DNA of 64,000 nucleotides from an uncultured Subdoligranulum sp. (GCA_964458285.1 CAYWID010000004.1:147842-211841), one strand, 5' to 3'; counted from the stretch's first letter, positions 5,560-35,397 are shown. Notes: generated by a model not told the origin, from the sequence alone. Translations and numbers: made by a program.

Positions 5560-5800
5560 GTCGTCGTCCTCGTCGTTCAGCCTGCGCAACCGCCGCCGCG
5601 CCCGCCCTTTGCCGCAAAGCACGCCGCCTTCCTTCTTGGTTGGTGTTGACGTTGACGATGACGATGACTGTAATGTTGATGTTGATGTTGATGTTGATGT
5701 TTACGTTGATGTTGATGTTGGGTTTTTAAAAAACCGTTGGGTTAAAAAAAAACCGTTCGGTTTTTTTTGAGGGAGGGGGGGCGCCCCGGCGGGGGGCAAT
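5560..5800 (-). pseudogene. decayed fragment resembling the linker of DUF6291-type phage/ICE replication-initiator proteins
   Basis: minus frame reads RRGAPPPSKKTERFFFNPTVF*KPNININVNININININITVIVIVNVNT with one in-frame TAA at 5726-5728; family resemblance is from memory, not a search. Confidence 0.45.
5645..5719. repeat. imperfect (GTTGAT/GTTGAC)n hexamer tandem repeat
   Basis: directly visible; encodes an (N-I/V)n tract on the minus strand. Confidence 0.95.
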
Positions 5801-5908
5801 CGGCAGGGCCGGATGCCGAATAACGCAATAAAACGAAATAAAACGAAACAAATCAACCGGAAAGGCCGCGGCGGGGCAAGCCGCGCGGCGGAAAGGAAGC
5901 GTACGACC

Positions 5909-6601
5909 ATGGAGAAATGGGCCGAGGCCATGCCGGTGCTGCGCACCTCGCCGCTGTTTGCGGGCATAGACGACCGCGAGCTGACCGGGATGCTGACCTG
6001 CCTGGATGCCCGGCGGGAAACCTGCCCCAAGGGGGCCTTTGTGCTGCGCGCCGGGGACAGGGTGGAGGCCGTGGGCCTGCTGCTGGCGGGCAGCGTGCTG
6101 GTCCTGCAGGAGGATTTTTGGGGCAACCGCAACCTGATTGCCCGGCTGATGCCGGGGCAGCTTTTTGCCGAATCGTTTGCCTGCGCGCCGGGCGCGACGC
6201 TCAGCGTAAGCGCGCTGGCGGACGCCCCCTGCACGGTGCTGTGGCTGGATGTCCGCCGTATTTTGACCACCTGCCCCGCGGCCTGCGCCCACCACAGCCG
6301 GCTGATCCGCAACCTGCTCTCCGACCTGGCGGGCAAAAACCTGCTGTTCAACGAAAAGCTGACCCACATGGCCCAGCGCACCACGCGGGAAAAGCTGCTT
6401 TCCTACCTTTCGGCGCAGGCGCAAAAGCAGGGCGGCCCCACCTTTACAATCCCGTTCGACCGCCAGCAGCTGGCCGATTACCTGGCCGTGGAGCGCAGCG
6501 CCATGTCCGCCGAGCTGGGCCGCCTGCGGGACGAGGGCGTGCTGGATTTTACCCGCAGCCGCTTCACGCTGCGCCAGCCGCCCGCGGGCGGCACCGCCTG
6601 A
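5909..6601 (+). CDS. Crp/Fnr family transcriptional regulator
   Basis: cNMP-binding-like domain (GQLFAESF) and C-terminal HTH (RQQLADYLAVERSAMSAEL); GAAAGGA RBS. Confidence 0.92.
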   Translation: MEKWAEAMPVLRTSPLFAGIDDRELTGMLTCLDARRETCPKGAFVLRAGDRVEAVGLLLAGSVLVLQEDFWGNRNLIARLMPGQLFAESFACAPGATLSVSALADAPCTVLWLDVRRILTTCPAACAHHSRLIRNLLSDLAGKNLLFNEKLTHMAQRTTREKLLSYLSAQAQKQGGPTFTIPFDRQQLADYLAVERSAMSAELGRLRDEGVLDFTRSRFTLRQPPAGGTA

Positions 6602-6616
6602 TTTACGCCGCCGTAA

Positions 6617-6669
6617 GCAAAGCCGCCGGGGCGCGCCGTTTTTTGTGCGGCGCGCCCCGGCGGCTTTGC
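6617..6669. terminator. 22-bp perfect inverted repeat between the Crp/Fnr gene and the convergent sRNA
   Basis: GCAAAGCCGCCGGGGCGCGCCG (6617-6638) / CGGCGCGCCCCGGCGGCTTTGC (6648-6669); lacks a clean U-tract, so terminator role is uncertain. Confidence 0.55.
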
Positions 6670-6696
6670 CCGGTCAAGGGGCAAAAAAGGCGACAG

Positions 6697-6774
6697 GAAA
6701 GCCCCGCCGAGGGAGGGCGGGGCTTACAGAAAGGAGGAGGAGAAAACATGAAAAAGTGTAGTTTTGTTTGCTAC
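6697..6774 (-). ncRNA. putative anti-SD/anti-AUG small RNA, copy B
   Basis: TTGACG-17-TACAAT promoter; core CUUUUUCAUGUUUUCUCCUCCUCCUUUCUG; hairpin AAGCCCCGCC-CUCCCUC-GGCGGGGCUU; paralogue at 33124-33210. Confidence 0.75.
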
Positions 6775-6780
6775 GGTCTT

Positions 6781-6834
6781 ATTGTAACCGATTTGTTACG
6801 ATTCGTCAAGAGCAAATTGTTACGTTTTTGTAAC
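6781..6834 (-). promoter_or_regulatory. sRNA promoter with two 7-4-7 direct-repeat boxes (OmpR-family type)
   Basis: plus-strand TTGTAAC 6782, TTGTTAC 6793, TTGTTAC 6817, TTGTAAC 6828; -35 at 6804-6809, -10 at 6781-6786. Confidence 0.8.
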
Positions 6835-6971
6835 TTCCCTGTAAAAAGGCGGGCGCCCCGGCCGCCGTGCCGAAGGGGGCGCAGGCCGGGCGCGGTTTTG
6901 GCAAAAAAAGCCGCCGTTGCGCTTTGAATTTTGCGCATTCCGACAAAAAGAAAAAAAAGAATGCGCCCGTT

Positions 6972-7002
6972 GAAACAATTCTGTGACAAGCCTCGTTATA
7001 AT
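6972..7002 (+). promoter_or_regulatory. putative TCS operon promoter with a degenerate repeat box in place of -35
   Basis: GAAACAA-ttct-GTGACAA (6972-6989) then TATAAT (6997-7002). Confidence 0.5.
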
Positions 7003-7086: not shown

Positions 7087-7740
7087 ATGGCAAATATCCT
7101 GATCGCGGAGGACGAGCGTGCAATCAACAATCTGATGGCGGCCAACCTGCGGCTGGTGGGGCACGCCTGCACGCAGGCTTTTACCGGCCCCCAGGCGCTG
7201 GAGCTGGCGCAAAGCGGCGCCTTTGACCTGGTGCTGCTGGATGTGATGCTGCCCGGGCAGGACGGCTTTGCGGTGAAAAGCCTGCTTCCCGCCGAGCAGC
7301 CGGTTATTTTTGTGACGGCCCGCACCGGCCTTGGCGACAAGCTCAAGGGCCTTGGCCTTGGCGCGGACGATTACATCGTCAAGCCGTTTGAAATACTGGA
7401 GCTGCTTGCCCGGGTGGAAACCGTGCTGCGCCGCACCCGCCGCAATGCCGAGACGTTCGCTTTTAAAGATCTTTTGGTCGATCTGACGGCCCGGCGGGTG
7501 GTGCGCGGCGGCGAGACGCTGGAGCTTACCCCGCAGGAATTTGCCCTGCTGGAGGCGCTGGTCATCAACCGAAACCTGGCGTTAAGCCGAGAAAAGCTGC
7601 TTTCCATCGCCTGGGGCTACGATTACGAGGGCGAAACCCGCACCGTGGACGTACACATCCAGCGCATTCGCAAAAAGCTTGGCCTTGAGCAGGAGATTCA
7701 AACCGTTTTCAAGGTTGGCTACCGGCTCAACACGCGGTAA
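7087..7740 (+). CDS. OmpR/PhoB family response regulator
   Basis: ILIAEDE, LLDVMLP, GADDYIVKPF, winged-helix RTVDVHIQRIRKKL. Confidence 0.95.
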   Translation: MANILIAEDERAINNLMAANLRLVGHACTQAFTGPQALELAQSGAFDLVLLDVMLPGQDGFAVKSLLPAEQPVIFVTARTGLGDKLKGLGLGADDYIVKPFEILELLARVETVLRRTRRNAETFAFKDLLVDLTARRVVRGGETLELTPQEFALLEALVINRNLALSREKLLSIAWGYDYEGETRTVDVHIQRIRKKLGLEQEIQTVFKVGYRLNTR

Positions 7741-7761
7741 GCGGCGCAGAAAGGCACAACC

Positions 7762-9249
7762 ATGACAAAACAAGCCCGCCCTGCGCGGCGGATGGCCTTC
7801 TGGATGCGCACCTACCTTGCCACGCTGGCGCTGTTTCTGGCCTGCCTGGGCGGGGGCGTGCTGGGCGTTACGGTGTTGAGCCGCAACATGAGCTTTGGCG
7901 CCCGCAGCGAGGAATTTTTGACCCACCAGCATATTCTGCTGCAACAGATGGCCGAGGATATCGCGGCGGTGGCCGCCGACCGCCCCGCGGCGCTCAACGA
8001 GCTGTACACCTTTTACGGCCAGCGGGTGCGCGGGCAGGGGATGCGGCTGGCCGTGTGGCAAAACGGCCTGCTGCGCTACAACGACCAGCCCCGCCTTGCC
8101 GCCCGCCCCGAGCTGGACGCCCTGCGCCCCGGCCAGCGCAGCTGGCAGGTGCGGCGGCTGGACGGGCGGCATATCCTGTTCGCCACCACGGCCTTCACGG
8201 GCGAGCTGACCGGCTACACGGTCAGCTGCTGCGCCGATATTGAGGATTTCTACGCCCAGTGGCGGCGGATGGGCAGCCTGGCGCTGGGGCTGGGCGCGGG
8301 CGTCTGCGCGATGTTTGCGGCGGGGCTGTATCTGGTGCTGCGCCGCATGTACCGCCCGCTGGGCGCCCTTACCGCCACGGCCCGCACCCTGGCCGGGGGC
8401 GATTTTTCGGCCCGCGCCGCCGCCGCCCGGTCCGACGAGCTGGGCGAGCTGGCCCGCACCCTCAACGAGATGGCGGGCCGGGTGGAGCGCCAGGTGGGGG
8501 AGCTGGCCGCCGAGGCCGAGAGCAAGCAGCAGCTGGTGGACAACCTTTCCCATGAGATGCGCACCCCCCTTACGGCCATCGGCGGCTATGCCGAGTATAT
8601 CCAGCGGGCCGATCTGCGCGGGGACGAGCTGGCCGAGGCCGCCGACACCATCCTGTTTGAAAGCCGCCGCCTGCTGGGGCTGTCCAACCAGCTGGTCAAG
8701 CTGTCGGTGCTGACGCACGAAACGCCGGAGTTTTGCCGCCTGCTGCCGGAGGGGCTGCTGCGCCGGGCGGTGCAGACCGTGCTGCCCAAGGCCGAGGGGC
8801 GCGGCGTGGCCGTGGTGCTGGCGCCCGGCGCGCACAACGCCCCCGCCCTGGCGGGCGACGCCGATCTTTTGGAAAGCCTGCTGGTCAACCTGGCCGATAA
8901 CGGCATCAAGGCCTGCGGCGCGGGCGGCTCCGTCACCCTTTCCGCCGCGGCGGAAAAAGACGGCGGCTGCGTTTTTTGCGTGCGGGACACCGGGCAGGGG
9001 ATGGATGCGGCCACCCTGGCGCGCATCGGCCAGCCCTTTTACCGGGCGGACAAGGCCCGCTCCCGCGCCGAGGGGGGCGCCGGGCTGGGGGTGGCGCTCT
9101 GCCGCGCCATCGCGGAGGCCCACGGCGCCGTGCTGCAGTACGCCAGCAGCCCCGGCAGGGGCACGTCCGTCACCCTGCGCTGCCCGCCCTGGCGGGAAAC
9201 GCCCGGGCAGGATTTACCGGCCTGCAACATCCCCGATACAGCGCCATGA
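7762..9249 (+). CDS. HAMP-domain sensor histidine kinase
   Basis: two TM segments, HAMP (DELGELARTLNEM), H-box SHEMRTPL, N-box NLADNG, G-boxes DTGQG and GAGLG. Confidence 0.95.
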   Translation: MTKQARPARRMAFWMRTYLATLALFLACLGGGVLGVTVLSRNMSFGARSEEFLTHQHILLQQMAEDIAAVAADRPAALNELYTFYGQRVRGQGMRLAVWQNGLLRYNDQPRLAARPELDALRPGQRSWQVRRLDGRHILFATTAFTGELTGYTVSCCADIEDFYAQWRRMGSLALGLGAGVCAMFAAGLYLVLRRMYRPLGALTATARTLAGGDFSARAAAARSDELGELARTLNEMAGRVERQVGELAAEAESKQQLVDNLSHEMRTPLTAIGGYAEYIQRADLRGDELAEAADTILFESRRLLGLSNQLVKLSVLTHETPEFCRLLPEGLLRRAVQTVLPKAEGRGVAVVLAPGAHNAPALAGDADLLESLLVNLADNGIKACGAGGSVTLSAAAEKDGGCVFCVRDTGQGMDAATLARIGQPFYRADKARSRAEGGAGLGVALCRAIAEAHGAVLQYASSPGRGTSVTLRCPPWRETPGQDLPACNIPDTAP

Positions 9250-32274: not shown

Positions 32275-33060
32275 ATGCTGCAACCCTATGAATTTGCCGA
32301 GGATTTTACCGTTTACGGGTACGACGGGGACTACCGGGGCCTTGCCAGGCCGGGGGCGCTGCTGCGCTACGCGCAGGAGGTGGCCGGGCAGCAGTGTACC
32401 CATTACGGCATCACCGGGGAGGTGTACGCCCGCACCCACACGGCCTATGTGCTGGCCAAAACGGCCATGCGCTTTGTCCGCGTGCCCCGCGTAGGCGAGC
32501 GCCTGACCCTGATCACCCAGCCGGAGGCCCTCAAGCGGGCCGTCAACAAGCGCCTGACCGTGGTGCGGGACGCCGCGGGGGAGGAGATTGCCCTGCTGGA
32601 CAGCCGCTGGGTGCTGATCGATACCGAAAAGCGGGTCATCCTGCGCCGCCACCCGCCCGAGGTCTGCGGCCCCTGGGCCGAGGAGCTGGGCCGCAGCCTG
32701 CCCATGAAGATGGCTTCCCGGCCCGGGGACGCCGCCCCCGTGGGGGAGCGCCGGGCCGTTTACTCCCTCTGCGATGCCAACGGCCACCTCAACAACACCC
32801 GCTATGTGGATCTGGTGCTGGACGCCCTGCCCCCGCAGGCGCTGGACGGCGCGGCGGTGGAAACCCTGCTGATCTTTTACCACAAGGAGGTGCCGCGCGG
32901 GGAAGCGTTTATGCTGTACCGGGCCCAAACGGCCCCCGGCCGCTGGTATTTTTGCGGCGTGCGGGAGGATAAATGCTGCTTTGAGGCCGAGCTTTCCCTC
33001 CGCGCGCTGCCCTGGCGGGACGGCGCCGCGGCGGGCGAAGCGCCGCAGGGCGGCGGCTGA
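32275..33060 (+). CDS. acyl-ACP thioesterase (FatA/FatB-like double hot-dog)
   Basis: LRYAQEVA, CDANGHLNNTRY motif. Confidence 0.88.
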   Translation: MLQPYEFAEDFTVYGYDGDYRGLARPGALLRYAQEVAGQQCTHYGITGEVYARTHTAYVLAKTAMRFVRVPRVGERLTLITQPEALKRAVNKRLTVVRDAAGEEIALLDSRWVLIDTEKRVILRRHPPEVCGPWAEELGRSLPMKMASRPGDAAPVGERRAVYSLCDANGHLNNTRYVDLVLDALPPQALDGAAVETLLIFYHKEVPRGEAFMLYRAQTAPGRWYFCGVREDKCCFEAELSLRALPWRDGAAAGEAPQGGG

Positions 33061-33063
33061 AAC

Positions 33064-33117
33064 GTTACAATTTGTTTACAAAAAGGCCTTGACAACTGAT
33101 GACAAAATTGTTACAAT
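33064..33117 (+). promoter_or_regulatory. sRNA promoter with two 7-4-7 direct-repeat boxes
   Basis: GTTACAA 33064, TTTACAA 33075, TTGACA 33089-33094, ATGACAA 33099, GTTACAA 33110, TACAAT 33112-33117. Confidence 0.82.
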
Positions 33118-33123
33118 AAGCTT

Positions 33124-33210
33124 GCAAGTTCAACCAATTCCTTCTTTTTCATGTGTTTTTTTCTCCTTCTCCTCTGCGCCCCCGCCAATCCCTCCGGCGG
33201 GGGCCTTTTT
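33124..33210 (+). ncRNA. putative anti-SD/anti-AUG small RNA, copy A
   Basis: own promoter; core CUUUUUCAUGUGUUUUUUUCUCCUUCUCCUCU; terminator GCCCCCGCC-AAUCCCUCC-GGCGGGGGC-CUUUUU; no sense ORF with an RBS. Confidence 0.8.
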
Positions 33211-33211
33211 A

Positions 33212-33240
33212 TTGACAGGGCGGCAGGTTTTTGCTATACT
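33212..33240 (+). promoter_or_regulatory. sigma-A promoter of the opp operon
   Basis: TTGACA-17-TATACT with TG extension. Confidence 0.88.
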
Positions 33241-33408: not shown

Positions 33409-35397
33409 ATGAAGAAAAGCGGTCAACTTTTGGCCGGCCTGCTGGCTGGCGCTTTTTGCTTTTCCCTGGCGGGCTGCGGCTCCGCCGGCGGCAGCGGCGC
33501 AACCGGGGAGGCGGCCTCCGGCGGCGCCGCGGCCCCCAGCGTCTACCGCACCCTGTATTCCAGCGAGGTAACCACCCTGAATTACCTCACCACCAGCAGC
33601 ACAAACGAGTACGCCATCGGCGCCAACGTCGTGGATTCCCTGGTCGAGTACGACAGCTACGGCAGGATCATCCCCTCCCTGGCCGAGAGCTGGAGCCACA
33701 ACGACGATATGACCGAGTGGACCTTCCACATCCGCAAGGGCGCCAAGTGGGTGGATCAGACCGGCAAGGAGGTGGCCGATGTCACCGCCAACGACTGGGT
33801 CTCCGCGGCGCGCTACGTCAACGACGCCCACAACGATTCCGCCAACCAGTATATGTACAACACGGGCGCGGTCGTCCACAACGCGCAGGCCTACTATGAC
33901 TACACGGCCTACCAGCTCACGCTGGAAACGAACAACCTTGCCACCGGCGAGAACGCGGCGGATTCGGACGGCAACCCCATCACGGTCGTGGACCCCGTGG
34001 ATCCCGCCAGCATCGGCGTGCGGGCCGCCGACGATTCCACGCTGGTCTACACGCTGGATCAGCCCTGCCCGTTCTTTCTCACAGTGCTGTCCTACACCTC
34101 CTATATGCCGGTGTACGGCCCGTTTTTGGAGGAGAAGGGCAGCCAGTTCGGCCTGGACAACGAGAGCCTGCTCTACAACGGCGCCTACATCCTCTCGACG
34201 TTTGAGCCGCAGGACAGTCATATCCTGACCAAAAACCCCGCCTACTGGGACAAGGACAACGTCTTTATCGATAAAATCCAGGAAAAGTACAACCCCGAGG
34301 CCACCAGCGTGGAGGCCACCATGTACAAGAACGGCGAGGTCGATCTGGCCCACATCAGCGCCGATCTGCTGGATTCCTGGCTGAAGGACGACGCCACCAA
34401 AAACCTTGTCCACGGTTCCCGGCCGGACAATGCGTTCAGCTATTTCTACTGCTTCAACTTTGACCCCGAGTTCGACGCCCAGTACGAGCCGGAAAACTGG
34501 AAAAAGGCCGTCAACAACGAGGATTTCCGCCTTTCGATCCTTCACGCGCTCGACCGCGTCAAGGCCAAGACGGTCAGCGAGCCGTACGACCCCAAGAGCC
34601 TGCTCTGCAACACGGTCACCCCGGCCAACTTTGCCGTGGGCGCCGGGGTGGATTACACCCAGTACCCGGCGCTGCAGGCGTTTACAAACGGCGACAGCTT
34701 TGACGCCGCCGCGGCCGCGGCCAGCCGGGACAAGGCCCGCACGGCGCTTGCCGCCGAGGGCGTTACCTTCCCCGTCAAGGTGCTGATGCCCTACAACCCC
34801 ACCTCCCCCAACTGGGACAAGGAATGCCAGGTGGTGGAGCAGCAGCTTGAGGGCGCCCTCGGCGCCGATTACATCGATGTCATCGTGCAGGCCGGCCCCG
34901 AGACGGGCTTCCTGTCCTCGGTGCGGCGCAGCGGCAACTACGCGCTGCTCAAGTGCAACTACGGCGCCGATTACGCCGACCCCATGACCTACACCGATCC
35001 CTTCACCAAGGGCAGCAACTACAATTTCTGGGATACCAGCACCGACCCCGCCACTGCGGCCCTGTTTGCCGAATGGGAGGCCAAGGTCAAGGCGGCCTCC
35101 GCCATCTATAACGACGACGGCGCCCGCTACAAGGCTTTTGCCGAGGCCGAGGCCATCCTGATCGACCACGCCATCGTAATCCCCTACAGCATTTCCTCGG
35201 GCGAGGGGTACGTCGCCAGCAACCTCAACCAGCTGGAGGGCGAGTACGCCCCCTACGGCGTGGCGCGGGAGCGGTACAAGTACGAGCATCTTTACCCCAC
35301 CTCGATGAGCATGGAAGAATTCCGGAAGGCCTACGACGCCTGGGTGGCCGAGCGCACCCGGGCGGTGGCCGCCGCCACAACGGAATCCGCGTCCTGA
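33409..35397 (+). CDS. oppA: oligopeptide ABC substrate-binding lipoprotein
   Basis: LAGC lipobox; TTLNY, DSLVEYD, WTFHIRKGAKW (SBP family 5). Confidence 0.93.
   Translation: MKKSGQLLAGLLAGAFCFSLAGCGSAGGSGATGEAASGGAAAPSVYRTLYSSEVTTLNYLTTSSTNEYAIGANVVDSLVEYDSYGRIIPSLAESWSHNDDMTEWTFHIRKGAKWVDQTGKEVADVTANDWVSAARYVNDAHNDSANQYMYNTGAVVHNAQAYYDYTAYQLTLETNNLATGENAADSDGNPITVVDPVDPASIGVRAADDSTLVYTLDQPCPFFLTVLSYTSYMPVYGPFLEEKGSQFGLDNESLLYNGAYILSTFEPQDSHILTKNPAYWDKDNVFIDKIQEKYNPEATSVEATMYKNGEVDLAHISADLLDSWLKDDATKNLVHGSRPDNAFSYFYCFNFDPEFDAQYEPENWKKAVNNEDFRLSILHALDRVKAKTVSEPYDPKSLLCNTVTPANFAVGAGVDYTQYPALQAFTNGDSFDAAAAAASRDKARTALAAEGVTFPVKVLMPYNPTSPNWDKECQVVEQQLEGALGADYIDVIVQAGPETGFLSSVRRSGNYALLKCNYGADYADPMTYTDPFTKGSNYNFWDTSTDPATAALFAEWEAKVKAASAIYNDDGARYKAFAEAEAILIDHAIVIPYSISSGEGYVASNLNQLEGEYAPYGVARERYKYEHLYPTSMSMEEFRKAYDAWVAERTRAVAAATTESAS

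Follow-up and report, generated by a model that had tools for sequence, protein, structure and literature searches.

Evidence for a duplicated, uncatalogued small RNA gene beside a two-component system in an uncultured Subdoligranulum genome

Between a convergent Crp/Fnr-type gene (5813–6601) and a divergent OmpR-type two-component system (7087–9249), a 64,000-nucleotide stretch of DNA from an uncultured Subdoligranulum sp. (GCA_964458285.1 CAYWID010000004.1:147842-211841; the whole stretch is referred to as the window, and positions are counted from its first letter) contains a segment (6683–6834) whose minus strand is laid out like the gene for a small RNA (sRNA). Is this segment, termed copy B, a gene, is it still functional next to its sibling in the same window (copy A), and what would its RNA do? 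A first-pass annotation, made from the sequence alone, had proposed a selected family of paralogous sRNAs, and all elements that it had named on the minus strand (repeats, promoter, +1 G, core, and hairpin) were found where it had placed them (Table 1). That the segment is a genuine gene for a small regulatory RNA is very likely. With moderate confidence, we favor the reading that copy B is a functional, free-standing, trans-acting sRNA gene whose product would act by masking translation initiation regions independently of Hfq.

Conservation was assessed across the genus, which, as judged from the names of matching public records, is Gemmiger in the sense of GTDB. When copy B alone was used as the BLAST query, one clear homologue was found in each of 15 other genus genomes (E-values down to 4e-19). 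With 17 aligned sequences as the basis of a covariance model, the element was detected in 35 of the 41 genomes of the genus, among them all 25 of high quality (at least 90% complete), and nearly always once. Such a search had been proposed in the first-pass annotation as a way to find further paralogues; it revealed a family that is near-universal in the genus, while two strong matches were present only in the window's genome, which contained no third one. In the alignment, a conserved -10 element and 5′ end (GGTTACAATTTAGTTGCAAG) are followed by a variable segment of 13–24 nt, and a block of 28 nt (CTTTTTCATGTGTTCTTCTCCTCCTTTC) is invariant. The stem of the terminal hairpin, in contrast to its constant loop (UUUCCCUCA), carries compensatory substitutions (CCCCCGCC/GGCGGGGG, TCCCCGCC/GGCGGGGA, CCTCCGCC/GGCGGAGG, and CCGCTGCC/GGTGGCGG), and RNAalifold identified double changes in 4 of 11 pairs of the terminator. 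Behind the hairpin, a U-rich tail is present solely on the strand bearing CUUUUUCAUG, which is the minus strand in the case of copy B. These features, together with the lack of conservation of the open reading frame (ORF) on the opposite strand (see below), support the claim of a selected family. No matching family was found in Rfam, irrespective of whether the window was scanned at the gathering thresholds or 16 homologous loci, of short and long form, were scanned by E-value; none of the subthreshold matches listed up to E = 1 was to the streptococcal csRNAs or to LhrC of Listeria (see below), and no description of this RNA was found in the literature. The comparison thus supports an uncatalogued sRNA family under selection, which is new but of a kind already known. 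As judged from sequence comparison, selection at the level of the family is demonstrated by the orthologues of copy A.

Like copy A, copy B is intergenic and has its own promoter and intrinsic terminator on one strand. Its promoter matched at 10 of 12 positions in a promoter scan, for which dinucleotide shuffles expect 0.2 sites, and from the promoter geometry we infer that transcription would start at the G listed in Table 1; with the 3′ end expected within the tail, an RNA of ∼80–92 nt would result. The core consists of a segment complementary to codons 2 and 3, the anti-AUG (CAU), and the anti-Shine–Dalgarno (anti-SD) segment CUCCUCCUCC. Both CUCCUCCUCC and CAU were unpaired in the minimum-energy as well as in the centroid fold of copy B. 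The CU-rich block was also open in folds of the single sequences of the family, the hairpins of which had folding energies of -22 to -27 kcal/mol (z = -3.3 to -4.8; copy B, -22.5 kcal/mol, z = -4.3). Behind the hairpin of copy B, the minus strand reads TCCTGTCGCCTTTTTT. The pair of GTTACAA/GTAACAA repeats that had been annotated upstream of the promoter is present (6828–6834 and 6817–6823, respectively), but copy B has four GTWACAA heptamers rather than two, the others being GTAACAA in the spacer (6793–6799) and GTTACAA at the -10 element (6782–6788).

The family is not confined to the genus. The covariance model also matched 12 further genera of the same family, Ruminococcaceae, and an exact-pattern scan, in which each species was represented by one genome, yielded 60 loci, recorded under the names Gemmiger, Allofournierella, Subdoligranulum, Candidatus Cibiobacter, and some “Faecalibacterium” or Oscillospiraceae metagenome-assembled genomes (MAGs), which are Ruminococcaceae in GTDB. 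The window's genus has a short form of ∼95–115 nt. In the related genera, the same promoter, the 5′ sequence CUUUUUCAUGUG, CUCCUCC, and the terminator with its UCCCUC loop recur in a longer RNA (∼150–170 nt), in which CUUUUUCAUGUGU is followed by a closing helix, inside which a stem displays CUCCUCC; the terminator loop is GUCCCUCC. The closing helix is formed by GAGGCGUCU and GGGCGUCUC, with an A-U/U-G variant (GAGGCAUCU/GGGUGUCUC) in one lineage. The 5′ end of the long forms (GCAAGAAAG) is able to pair with CUUUUUCAUGU, and this pairing may sequester the anti-AUG. In two public bins labeled Bulleidia sp. (L065) and Coriobacteriaceae bacterium (L085), the short-form copy hardly differs from that of a Subdoligranulum variabile MAG (L064), and mis-binning of the contigs is probable.

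Copy A had been placed ∼26 kb away, and it was indeed found at 26.3 kb, on the plus strand, with the same layout and a similarity far above chance. Pattern and covariance-model searches detected just these two copies in the genome (2.35 Mb, 63% G+C). Their identity is unevenly distributed: 38 of 57 positions in the promoter, concentrated in the hexamers (the promoter of copy A is an 11/12 match), 26 of 32 in the core, and 28 of 38 in the terminator, where the outer pair is compensated. Only 13 of 23 bases are identical in the 5′ segment, in line with the claim that the 5′ ends differ. As a comparison of two sequences, this pattern is suggestive of, not conclusive for, selection on copy B. The two cores also differ in their relation to the consensus of the genus, which copy B matches at 26 of 28 positions without a gap, whereas copy A can be aligned only with indels: its core (CUUUUUCAUGUGUUUUUUUCUCCUUCUCCUCU) has drifted from the otherwise invariant one. 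This suggests that the seeds diverged after duplication, with the ancestral seed residing in the duplicate (copy B) and the drifted one in the resident copy A. That copy A occupies the ancestral, syntenic locus follows from the acyl carrier protein (ACP) thioesterase gene upstream of it (acyl-ACP thioesterase, 32275–33060), which is also found at the loci of several genera with long and short forms. The junction TACAAT-AAG is common to copy A, copy B, and two relatives (G014 and G008), whereas the other relatives have TACAAT-TTAG; this lineage-specific junction points to an intragenomic duplication rather than import from a distant relative. By its distribution, copy B is a lineage-specific duplicate of an sRNA that belongs to the single-copy core of the genus. 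Directly after the terminator of copy A lies a separate promoter (TTGACA-17-TATACT, 33212–33240), which drives an SBP_bac_5 (oppA-like) lipoprotein gene (33409–35397). The sRNA therefore adjoins a member of its own predicted target class.

In the mechanism proposed here, the RNA would be mostly unstructured 5′ of the terminator and expose its pyrimidine-rich stretch, which would mirror a translation initiation region exactly (anti-SD CUCCUCC, spacer, anti-AUG CAU, and anti-AAAAAG). Over at least 10–15 contiguous bp, it would pair with the region from the SD to codon 3 of mRNAs that have AUG-AAA-AAG behind a strong SD and that, in this genome, would mainly encode substrate-binding lipoproteins of ATP-binding cassette (ABC) transporters. 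Pairing would block binding of the 30S subunit and repress translation. The UCCCUC of the terminator loop may provide a second SD-binding site, and, with its repeated CUC, the RNA could plausibly use several SD-to-AUG registers, as had been suggested in the first-pass annotation. Hfq (PF17209) was not detected in the window's genome, which is 99% complete; the mechanism proposed is therefore Hfq-independent.

Candidate targets were consistent with this mechanism. In the genus genomes, the complementary 13-mer ACACATGAAAAAG was found about a dozen times at sites other than the sRNA gene, compared with ∼0–1 times for the reversed control. Nearly all of the occurrences inspected were starts of lipoprotein genes, and all 10 proteins scanned behind ACACATGAAAAAG were substrate-binding proteins of ABC transporters (SBP_bac_3, five, from five species; Bmp, two; SBP_bac_5, two; Peripla_BP_4, one). 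Within the window's genome, 24 SD-preceded genes begin with ATGAAAAAG, and a lipobox is present in 13 of them. When the initiation regions of these 13 genes were aligned to the sRNAs in the AUG-anchored register, 18–28 of 34 positions were predicted to pair, with contiguous runs of 9–15 bp and, in some cases, a preference for one copy or the other (Table 1). Further predicted targets are C7:117220 and livK (at ∼22749 in the window). Translational repression of mRNAs for binding lipoproteins, by masking of their initiation regions, is the reading best supported by these predictions.

Transcription of the sRNA would be controlled through an 11-bp-phased TTNCAA/GTWACAA array by a regulator of the OmpR/PhoB type. 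When 57 unique promoters of the family were anchored at the -10 element, TTNCAA-like hexamers were found at -59, -48, -35, -24, -13, and -2, with spacings of 11, 13, 11, 11, and 11 bp. Copy B has five of the six (∼-59, -48, -35, -24, and -13) and has lost the one at -2. The spacer TCAAAA-GGTTACAAT-TTAG-TTGCAAG is nearly invariant in the family, which exceeds the need of sigma-70 recognition. Phased direct repeats are the usual sites of OmpR/PhoB-family regulators, for example, the GTTACA half-sites of OmpR and TT(A/T/C)ACA of Bacillus PhoP. Direct repeats phased by ∼11 bp are present at and upstream of the -35 element, as control of this type would require, and the array is a candidate binding site for such a response regulator. 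The adjacent two-component system has a similar repeat box at the -35 position of its own promoter (Table 1), where orthologous loci (L161–L164) carry TGTAACAA-N4-GATACA-N7-CGTTATAAT; this box is probably an autoregulatory site.

The closest analogue of such an RNA is provided by the cia-dependent sRNAs of streptococci (csRNAs, CcnA-E), sibling sRNAs of 51–202 nt with unpaired anti-SD and anti-AUG motifs and CiaR direct-repeat promoters in Hfq-less hosts, in which the CiaR box (NTTAAG-N5-TTTAAG) is located 10 bp upstream of the -10 element (PMC3091779). The likeness extends to small, free-standing sibling genes in more than one copy, an unpaired anti-SD followed by the anti-AUG (CAU), a Rho-independent terminator, direct repeats spaced by 11 bp for an OmpR-family regulator (a candidate here), and the absence of Hfq. 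In contrast to the csRNAs, the present RNA is found in Ruminococcaceae (Clostridia) and not in Streptococcus, matches no Rfam family by sequence or covariance model, and has a weak or variable 5′ stem–loop. Its repeats (GTWACAA-N4-KTWACAA at -59/-48) leave a canonical -35 element in place and are continued by phased hexamers up to the start, whereas the csRNA box replaces the -35 element. The second analogue is LhrC1-5 of Listeria monocytogenes, whose redundant CU-rich/UCCC motifs, in single strands and in the terminator loop, bind the SD and block translation of surface-protein and lipoprotein mRNAs; LhrC depends on a two-component system and is Hfq-independent (PMC4132741). Multiple copies and redundant CU-rich motifs in single strand and terminator loop are again shared, as is independence of Hfq as far as this genome lacks the protein. 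There is no homology detectable with Rfam, however, most species have one copy and this genome two that are not in tandem, and the motif extends here through the start codon and two further codons in an invariant block of 28 nt. As for the UCCC motif that characterizes LhrC, the terminator loop is UCCCUC throughout the present family, but the single strand contains CUCCUCC and not UCCC. Among the LhrC targets is reportedly oppA. Regulons dominated by mRNAs for substrate-binding proteins of ABC transporters are also those of the sibling pair AbcR1/AbcR2 (Rhizobiales), with anti-SD motifs in a loop and a single strand, and of GcvB (Enterobacteria), with a G/U-rich seed directed against C/A-rich enhancers. 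Unlike the present RNA, for which a binding-protein regulon is a prediction, these are Hfq-dependent sRNAs of Proteobacteria with unrelated sequence and structure. The present RNA would thus work like the csRNAs and LhrC but is a member of neither family.

Several observations weigh against initiation-region masking by a functional copy B. Duplex energies over 9,595 candidate starts averaged -16 to -19 kcal/mol and were dominated by G+C-rich and SD-rich windows, so that the ranking does not discriminate; target prediction is weakly discriminating in general, any anti-SD being able to pair with many initiation regions at 63% G+C. About half of the SD-preceded AUGAAAAAG genes encode lipoproteins anyway, and the bias toward binding proteins is therefore partly built in. 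The best single target here, the SBP_bac_1 gene at C5:60340, had to be dropped as a conserved target, as no orthologue was found in 40 genus genomes. Orthologues of the neighboring kinase were present in 5, and those of the regulator (at least 69% identity) in 8, of 40 genus genomes, versus 35 of 41 for the sRNA. The tie to the divergent two-component system that the first-pass annotation had implied is accordingly weak: the phyletic pattern rules this system out as the conserved regulator of a family whose repeat array is near-universal, and at most it is a candidate for a local regulator in this species. Preservation at orthologous loci, on which the claim of selection had been made to depend, holds for copy A, whose orthologues occur across the genus, but not for copy B. 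In five relatives with an orthologous two-component system (regulator 77–80% and kinase 55–60% identical), no copy-B-like element was found ahead of that system, where the synteny differs and the Crp gene is missing, and two pattern scans of metagenomes for the copy-B-specific core yielded no true homologue, just two chance gene starts. In the data searched, copy B is unique to this genome. Furthermore, the U-tract right behind its hairpin is interrupted (UUUCCUGUCGCCUUUUUU).

It is conceivable, though we regard it as doubtful, that the family is a clade-wide core mask of initiation regions rather than a gene-specific repressor, which recognizes a class of mRNAs by the signal-peptide signature AUG-AAA-AAG behind a strong SD, such as that of substrate-binding lipoproteins, and that copies A and B have split the job. 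The invariant 28-nt block would then consist of a replica of the 16S anti-SD tail, the triplet of the initiator anticodon, and anti-Lys-Lys codons. Copy B, with the ancestral seed, would prefer C1:273260 and C4:39675, and copy A, with the drifted seed, C5:60340 and C5:144893. If this were true, the mask would set the global capacity for nutrient uptake in abundant gut Ruminococcaceae.

That copy B occurs in no other genome, is missing at the orthologous loci and from the metagenome scans, and has relatives that are nearly all single-copy is also what would be expected if it were a decaying or neutral duplicate, that is, a real paralogue by descent which is not (or never was) expressed or functional, with function residing in copy A alone. 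Its loss of the conserved 5′ UUGCAAG motif and of the -2 hexamer fits this possibility, too, as does the interrupted U-tract, although tails of the type UUUC... are also typical of the orthologues. Nevertheless, we consider it unlikely. The -35 and -10 elements and their 17-nt spacing are intact, the hairpin is intact and its outer pair compensated, and the core is closer to the consensus than that of copy A and free of indels, whereas the 5′ segment has diverged. Retention of exactly these modules, despite the age implied by the divergence of the 5′ segment, would not be expected under neutrality and fits purifying selection on the functional modules (core, promoter hexamers with their spacing, and hairpin). 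Copy B is thus very probably still functional, as far as can be read from its sequence.

A functional RNA need not pair with specific mRNAs. Alternatively, it could be a decoy that mimics the 3′ tail of 16S rRNA plus an anti-AUG and titrates strong initiation regions or a pyrimidine-tract-binding protein, for example, ribosomal protein S1. The core, which we take to resemble the anti-SD end of 16S rRNA, is invariant over 28 nt while orthologous proteins of the genus are only ∼55–80% identical, a degree of constraint that a small number of mRNA targets does not usually bring about, and very many initiation regions are predicted to pair with the RNA. However, sRNAs with multiple targets, such as csRNAs and LhrC, likewise have highly conserved seeds, and the long forms tolerate a structured insert between CAUGUG and CUCCUCC, which argues against a strictly contiguous mimic. 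We regard a decoy as distinctly improbable compared with pairing to specific mRNAs.

Read on the plus strand, the core (GGAGGAGGAGAAAAC-ATG-AAA-AAG) itself looks like a gene start: a very strong SD (GGAGGAGGAG) precedes, with good spacing (N5), an ATG at 6752 that opens an ORF of 59 codons (6752–6931), and this could encode a small protein or a type I toxin, with the minus-strand RNA as its cis-antisense RNA. In type I toxin–antitoxin systems, antisense RNAs do cover the initiation region of the toxin. Yet the ORF following ATGAAAAAG in ∼17 homologues is 5, 5, 5, 5, 5, 7, 12, 12, 13, 13, 13, 13, 14, 20, 24, and 26 amino acids long, with no conserved sequence or frame; that of copy A has 13 amino acids and is unrelated to that of copy B past MKK. 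In addition, no part of the element varies more than the DNA past the ATG, the long forms have a structured insert of 20–30 nt between “SD” and “ATG,” there is no plus-strand promoter ahead, and the hairpin has no U-tail on the plus strand. There is thus no conserved gene on the opposite strand, and a small protein or type I toxin, rejected on these grounds, is extremely unlikely. Equally far-fetched is a cis-acting leader or attenuator, which would share the layout of a promoter, a leader of ∼80 nt, and a (conditional) terminator and would agree with the position of copy A 200 nt upstream of the oppA-like gene, but which the gene context rules out, for no gene lies downstream of copy B on the same strand, where a second hairpin and the 3′ end of the Crp/Fnr gene, which is convergent, follow instead, the gene downstream of copy A has its own promoter past the terminator, the downstream genes vary among orthologous loci, and no alternative antiterminator structure was found.

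Gemmiger, Subdoligranulum, and Allofournierella are abundant commensals of the human and animal gut with poor genetics, and we know of essentially no characterized RNA regulators in them. An uncatalogued, genus-universal sRNA with a readily interpreted seed and a testable predicted regulon (the binding lipoproteins of ABC transporters) is of interest in this respect, and the genome with two copies represents a natural experiment in the evolution of sibling sRNAs. The mechanism as such is already known and unsurprising; the family is new. With it, the csRNA/LhrC design of Bacilli (a mirror of SD and AUG, a repeat-controlled promoter, and no Hfq) would be extended to Clostridia, and this points to one solution being reused, either by convergence or from very early on.

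Table 1. Coordinates of the two sRNA copies, the adjacent two-component system, predicted targets, and long-form relatives. Targets are given as start-codon positions in the window's genome (G000); duplex energies are predictions.
Feature	Position	Strand	Remarks
Copy B, upstream direct repeats GTTACAA-aaac-GTAACAA	6817..6834	(-)	At ∼-59 and -48; part of the 11-bp-phased TTNCAA array
Copy B, sigma-70-type promoter TTGACG-17-TACAAT	6781..6809	(-)	-35, 6804-6809; -10, 6781-6786; conserved across all homologues
Copy B, predicted transcription start (G)	6774	(-)	7 nt past the -10; from promoter geometry
Copy B, divergent 5′ segment UAGCAAACAAAACUACA	6757..6773	(-)	Able to form a small GUAG/CUAC hairpin; 5′ UUGCAAG motif of the family lost
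Copy B, unpaired CU-rich core CUUUUUCAUGUUUUCUCCUCCUCCUUUC (DNA CTTTTTCATGTTTTCTCCTCCTCCTTTC)	6729..6756	(-)	26/28 identical, ungapped, to the genus core
Copy B, terminator hairpin AAGCCCCGCC-CUCCCUC-GGCGGGGCUU (DNA AAGCCCCGCC-CTCCCTC-GGCGGGGCTT)	6699..6725	(-)	Loop UCCCUC conserved
Copy B, 3′ tail UCCUGUCGCCUUUUUU	6683..6698	(-)	Termination expected inside
Copy A, paralogue at the syntenic ancestral locus	33064..33213	(+)	26.3 kb from copy B; same architecture
Copy A, repeats	33064-33081	(+)	
Copy A, -35	33089-33094	(+)	
Copy A, -10	33112-33117	(+)	
Copy A, start	∼33124	(+)	
Copy A, core	33144-33175	(+)	
Copy A, hairpin	33178-33204	(+)	U-tail to 33213
OmpR-family response regulator	7087-7740	(+)	
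HAMP/HisKA histidine kinase	7762-9249	(+)	
Promoter of the two-component system, GAAACAA-ttct-GTGACAA-gcctcgt-TATAAT	6972..7002	(+)	Repeat box at the -35 position, like the sRNA repeats
Predicted target, SBP_bac_8	C1:273260		Duplex: copy A, -22.6; copy B, -28.6 kcal/mol
Predicted target, SBP_bac_1	C5:60340		Duplex: copy A, -35.5; copy B, -25.7 kcal/mol
Long-form examples	L079:3587-3744, L050:5070-5223, L060:699-862, and ∼25 other loci		Covarying closing helix and inner stem

Two further observations concern the side of copy B that faces the Crp/Fnr-type gene. Just upstream of the latter, a hexanucleotide tandem repeat, (GTTGAT) x 13.7, was found at 5639–5720, followed by a 19-nt repeat at 5717–5765. 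Between the terminator of copy B and the stop of the convergent gene lies a long G+C-rich hairpin (GCCGCCGGGGCGCGCCG...CGGCGCGCCCCGGCGGC, 6620–6670), which is probably a bidirectional terminator that insulates both units.

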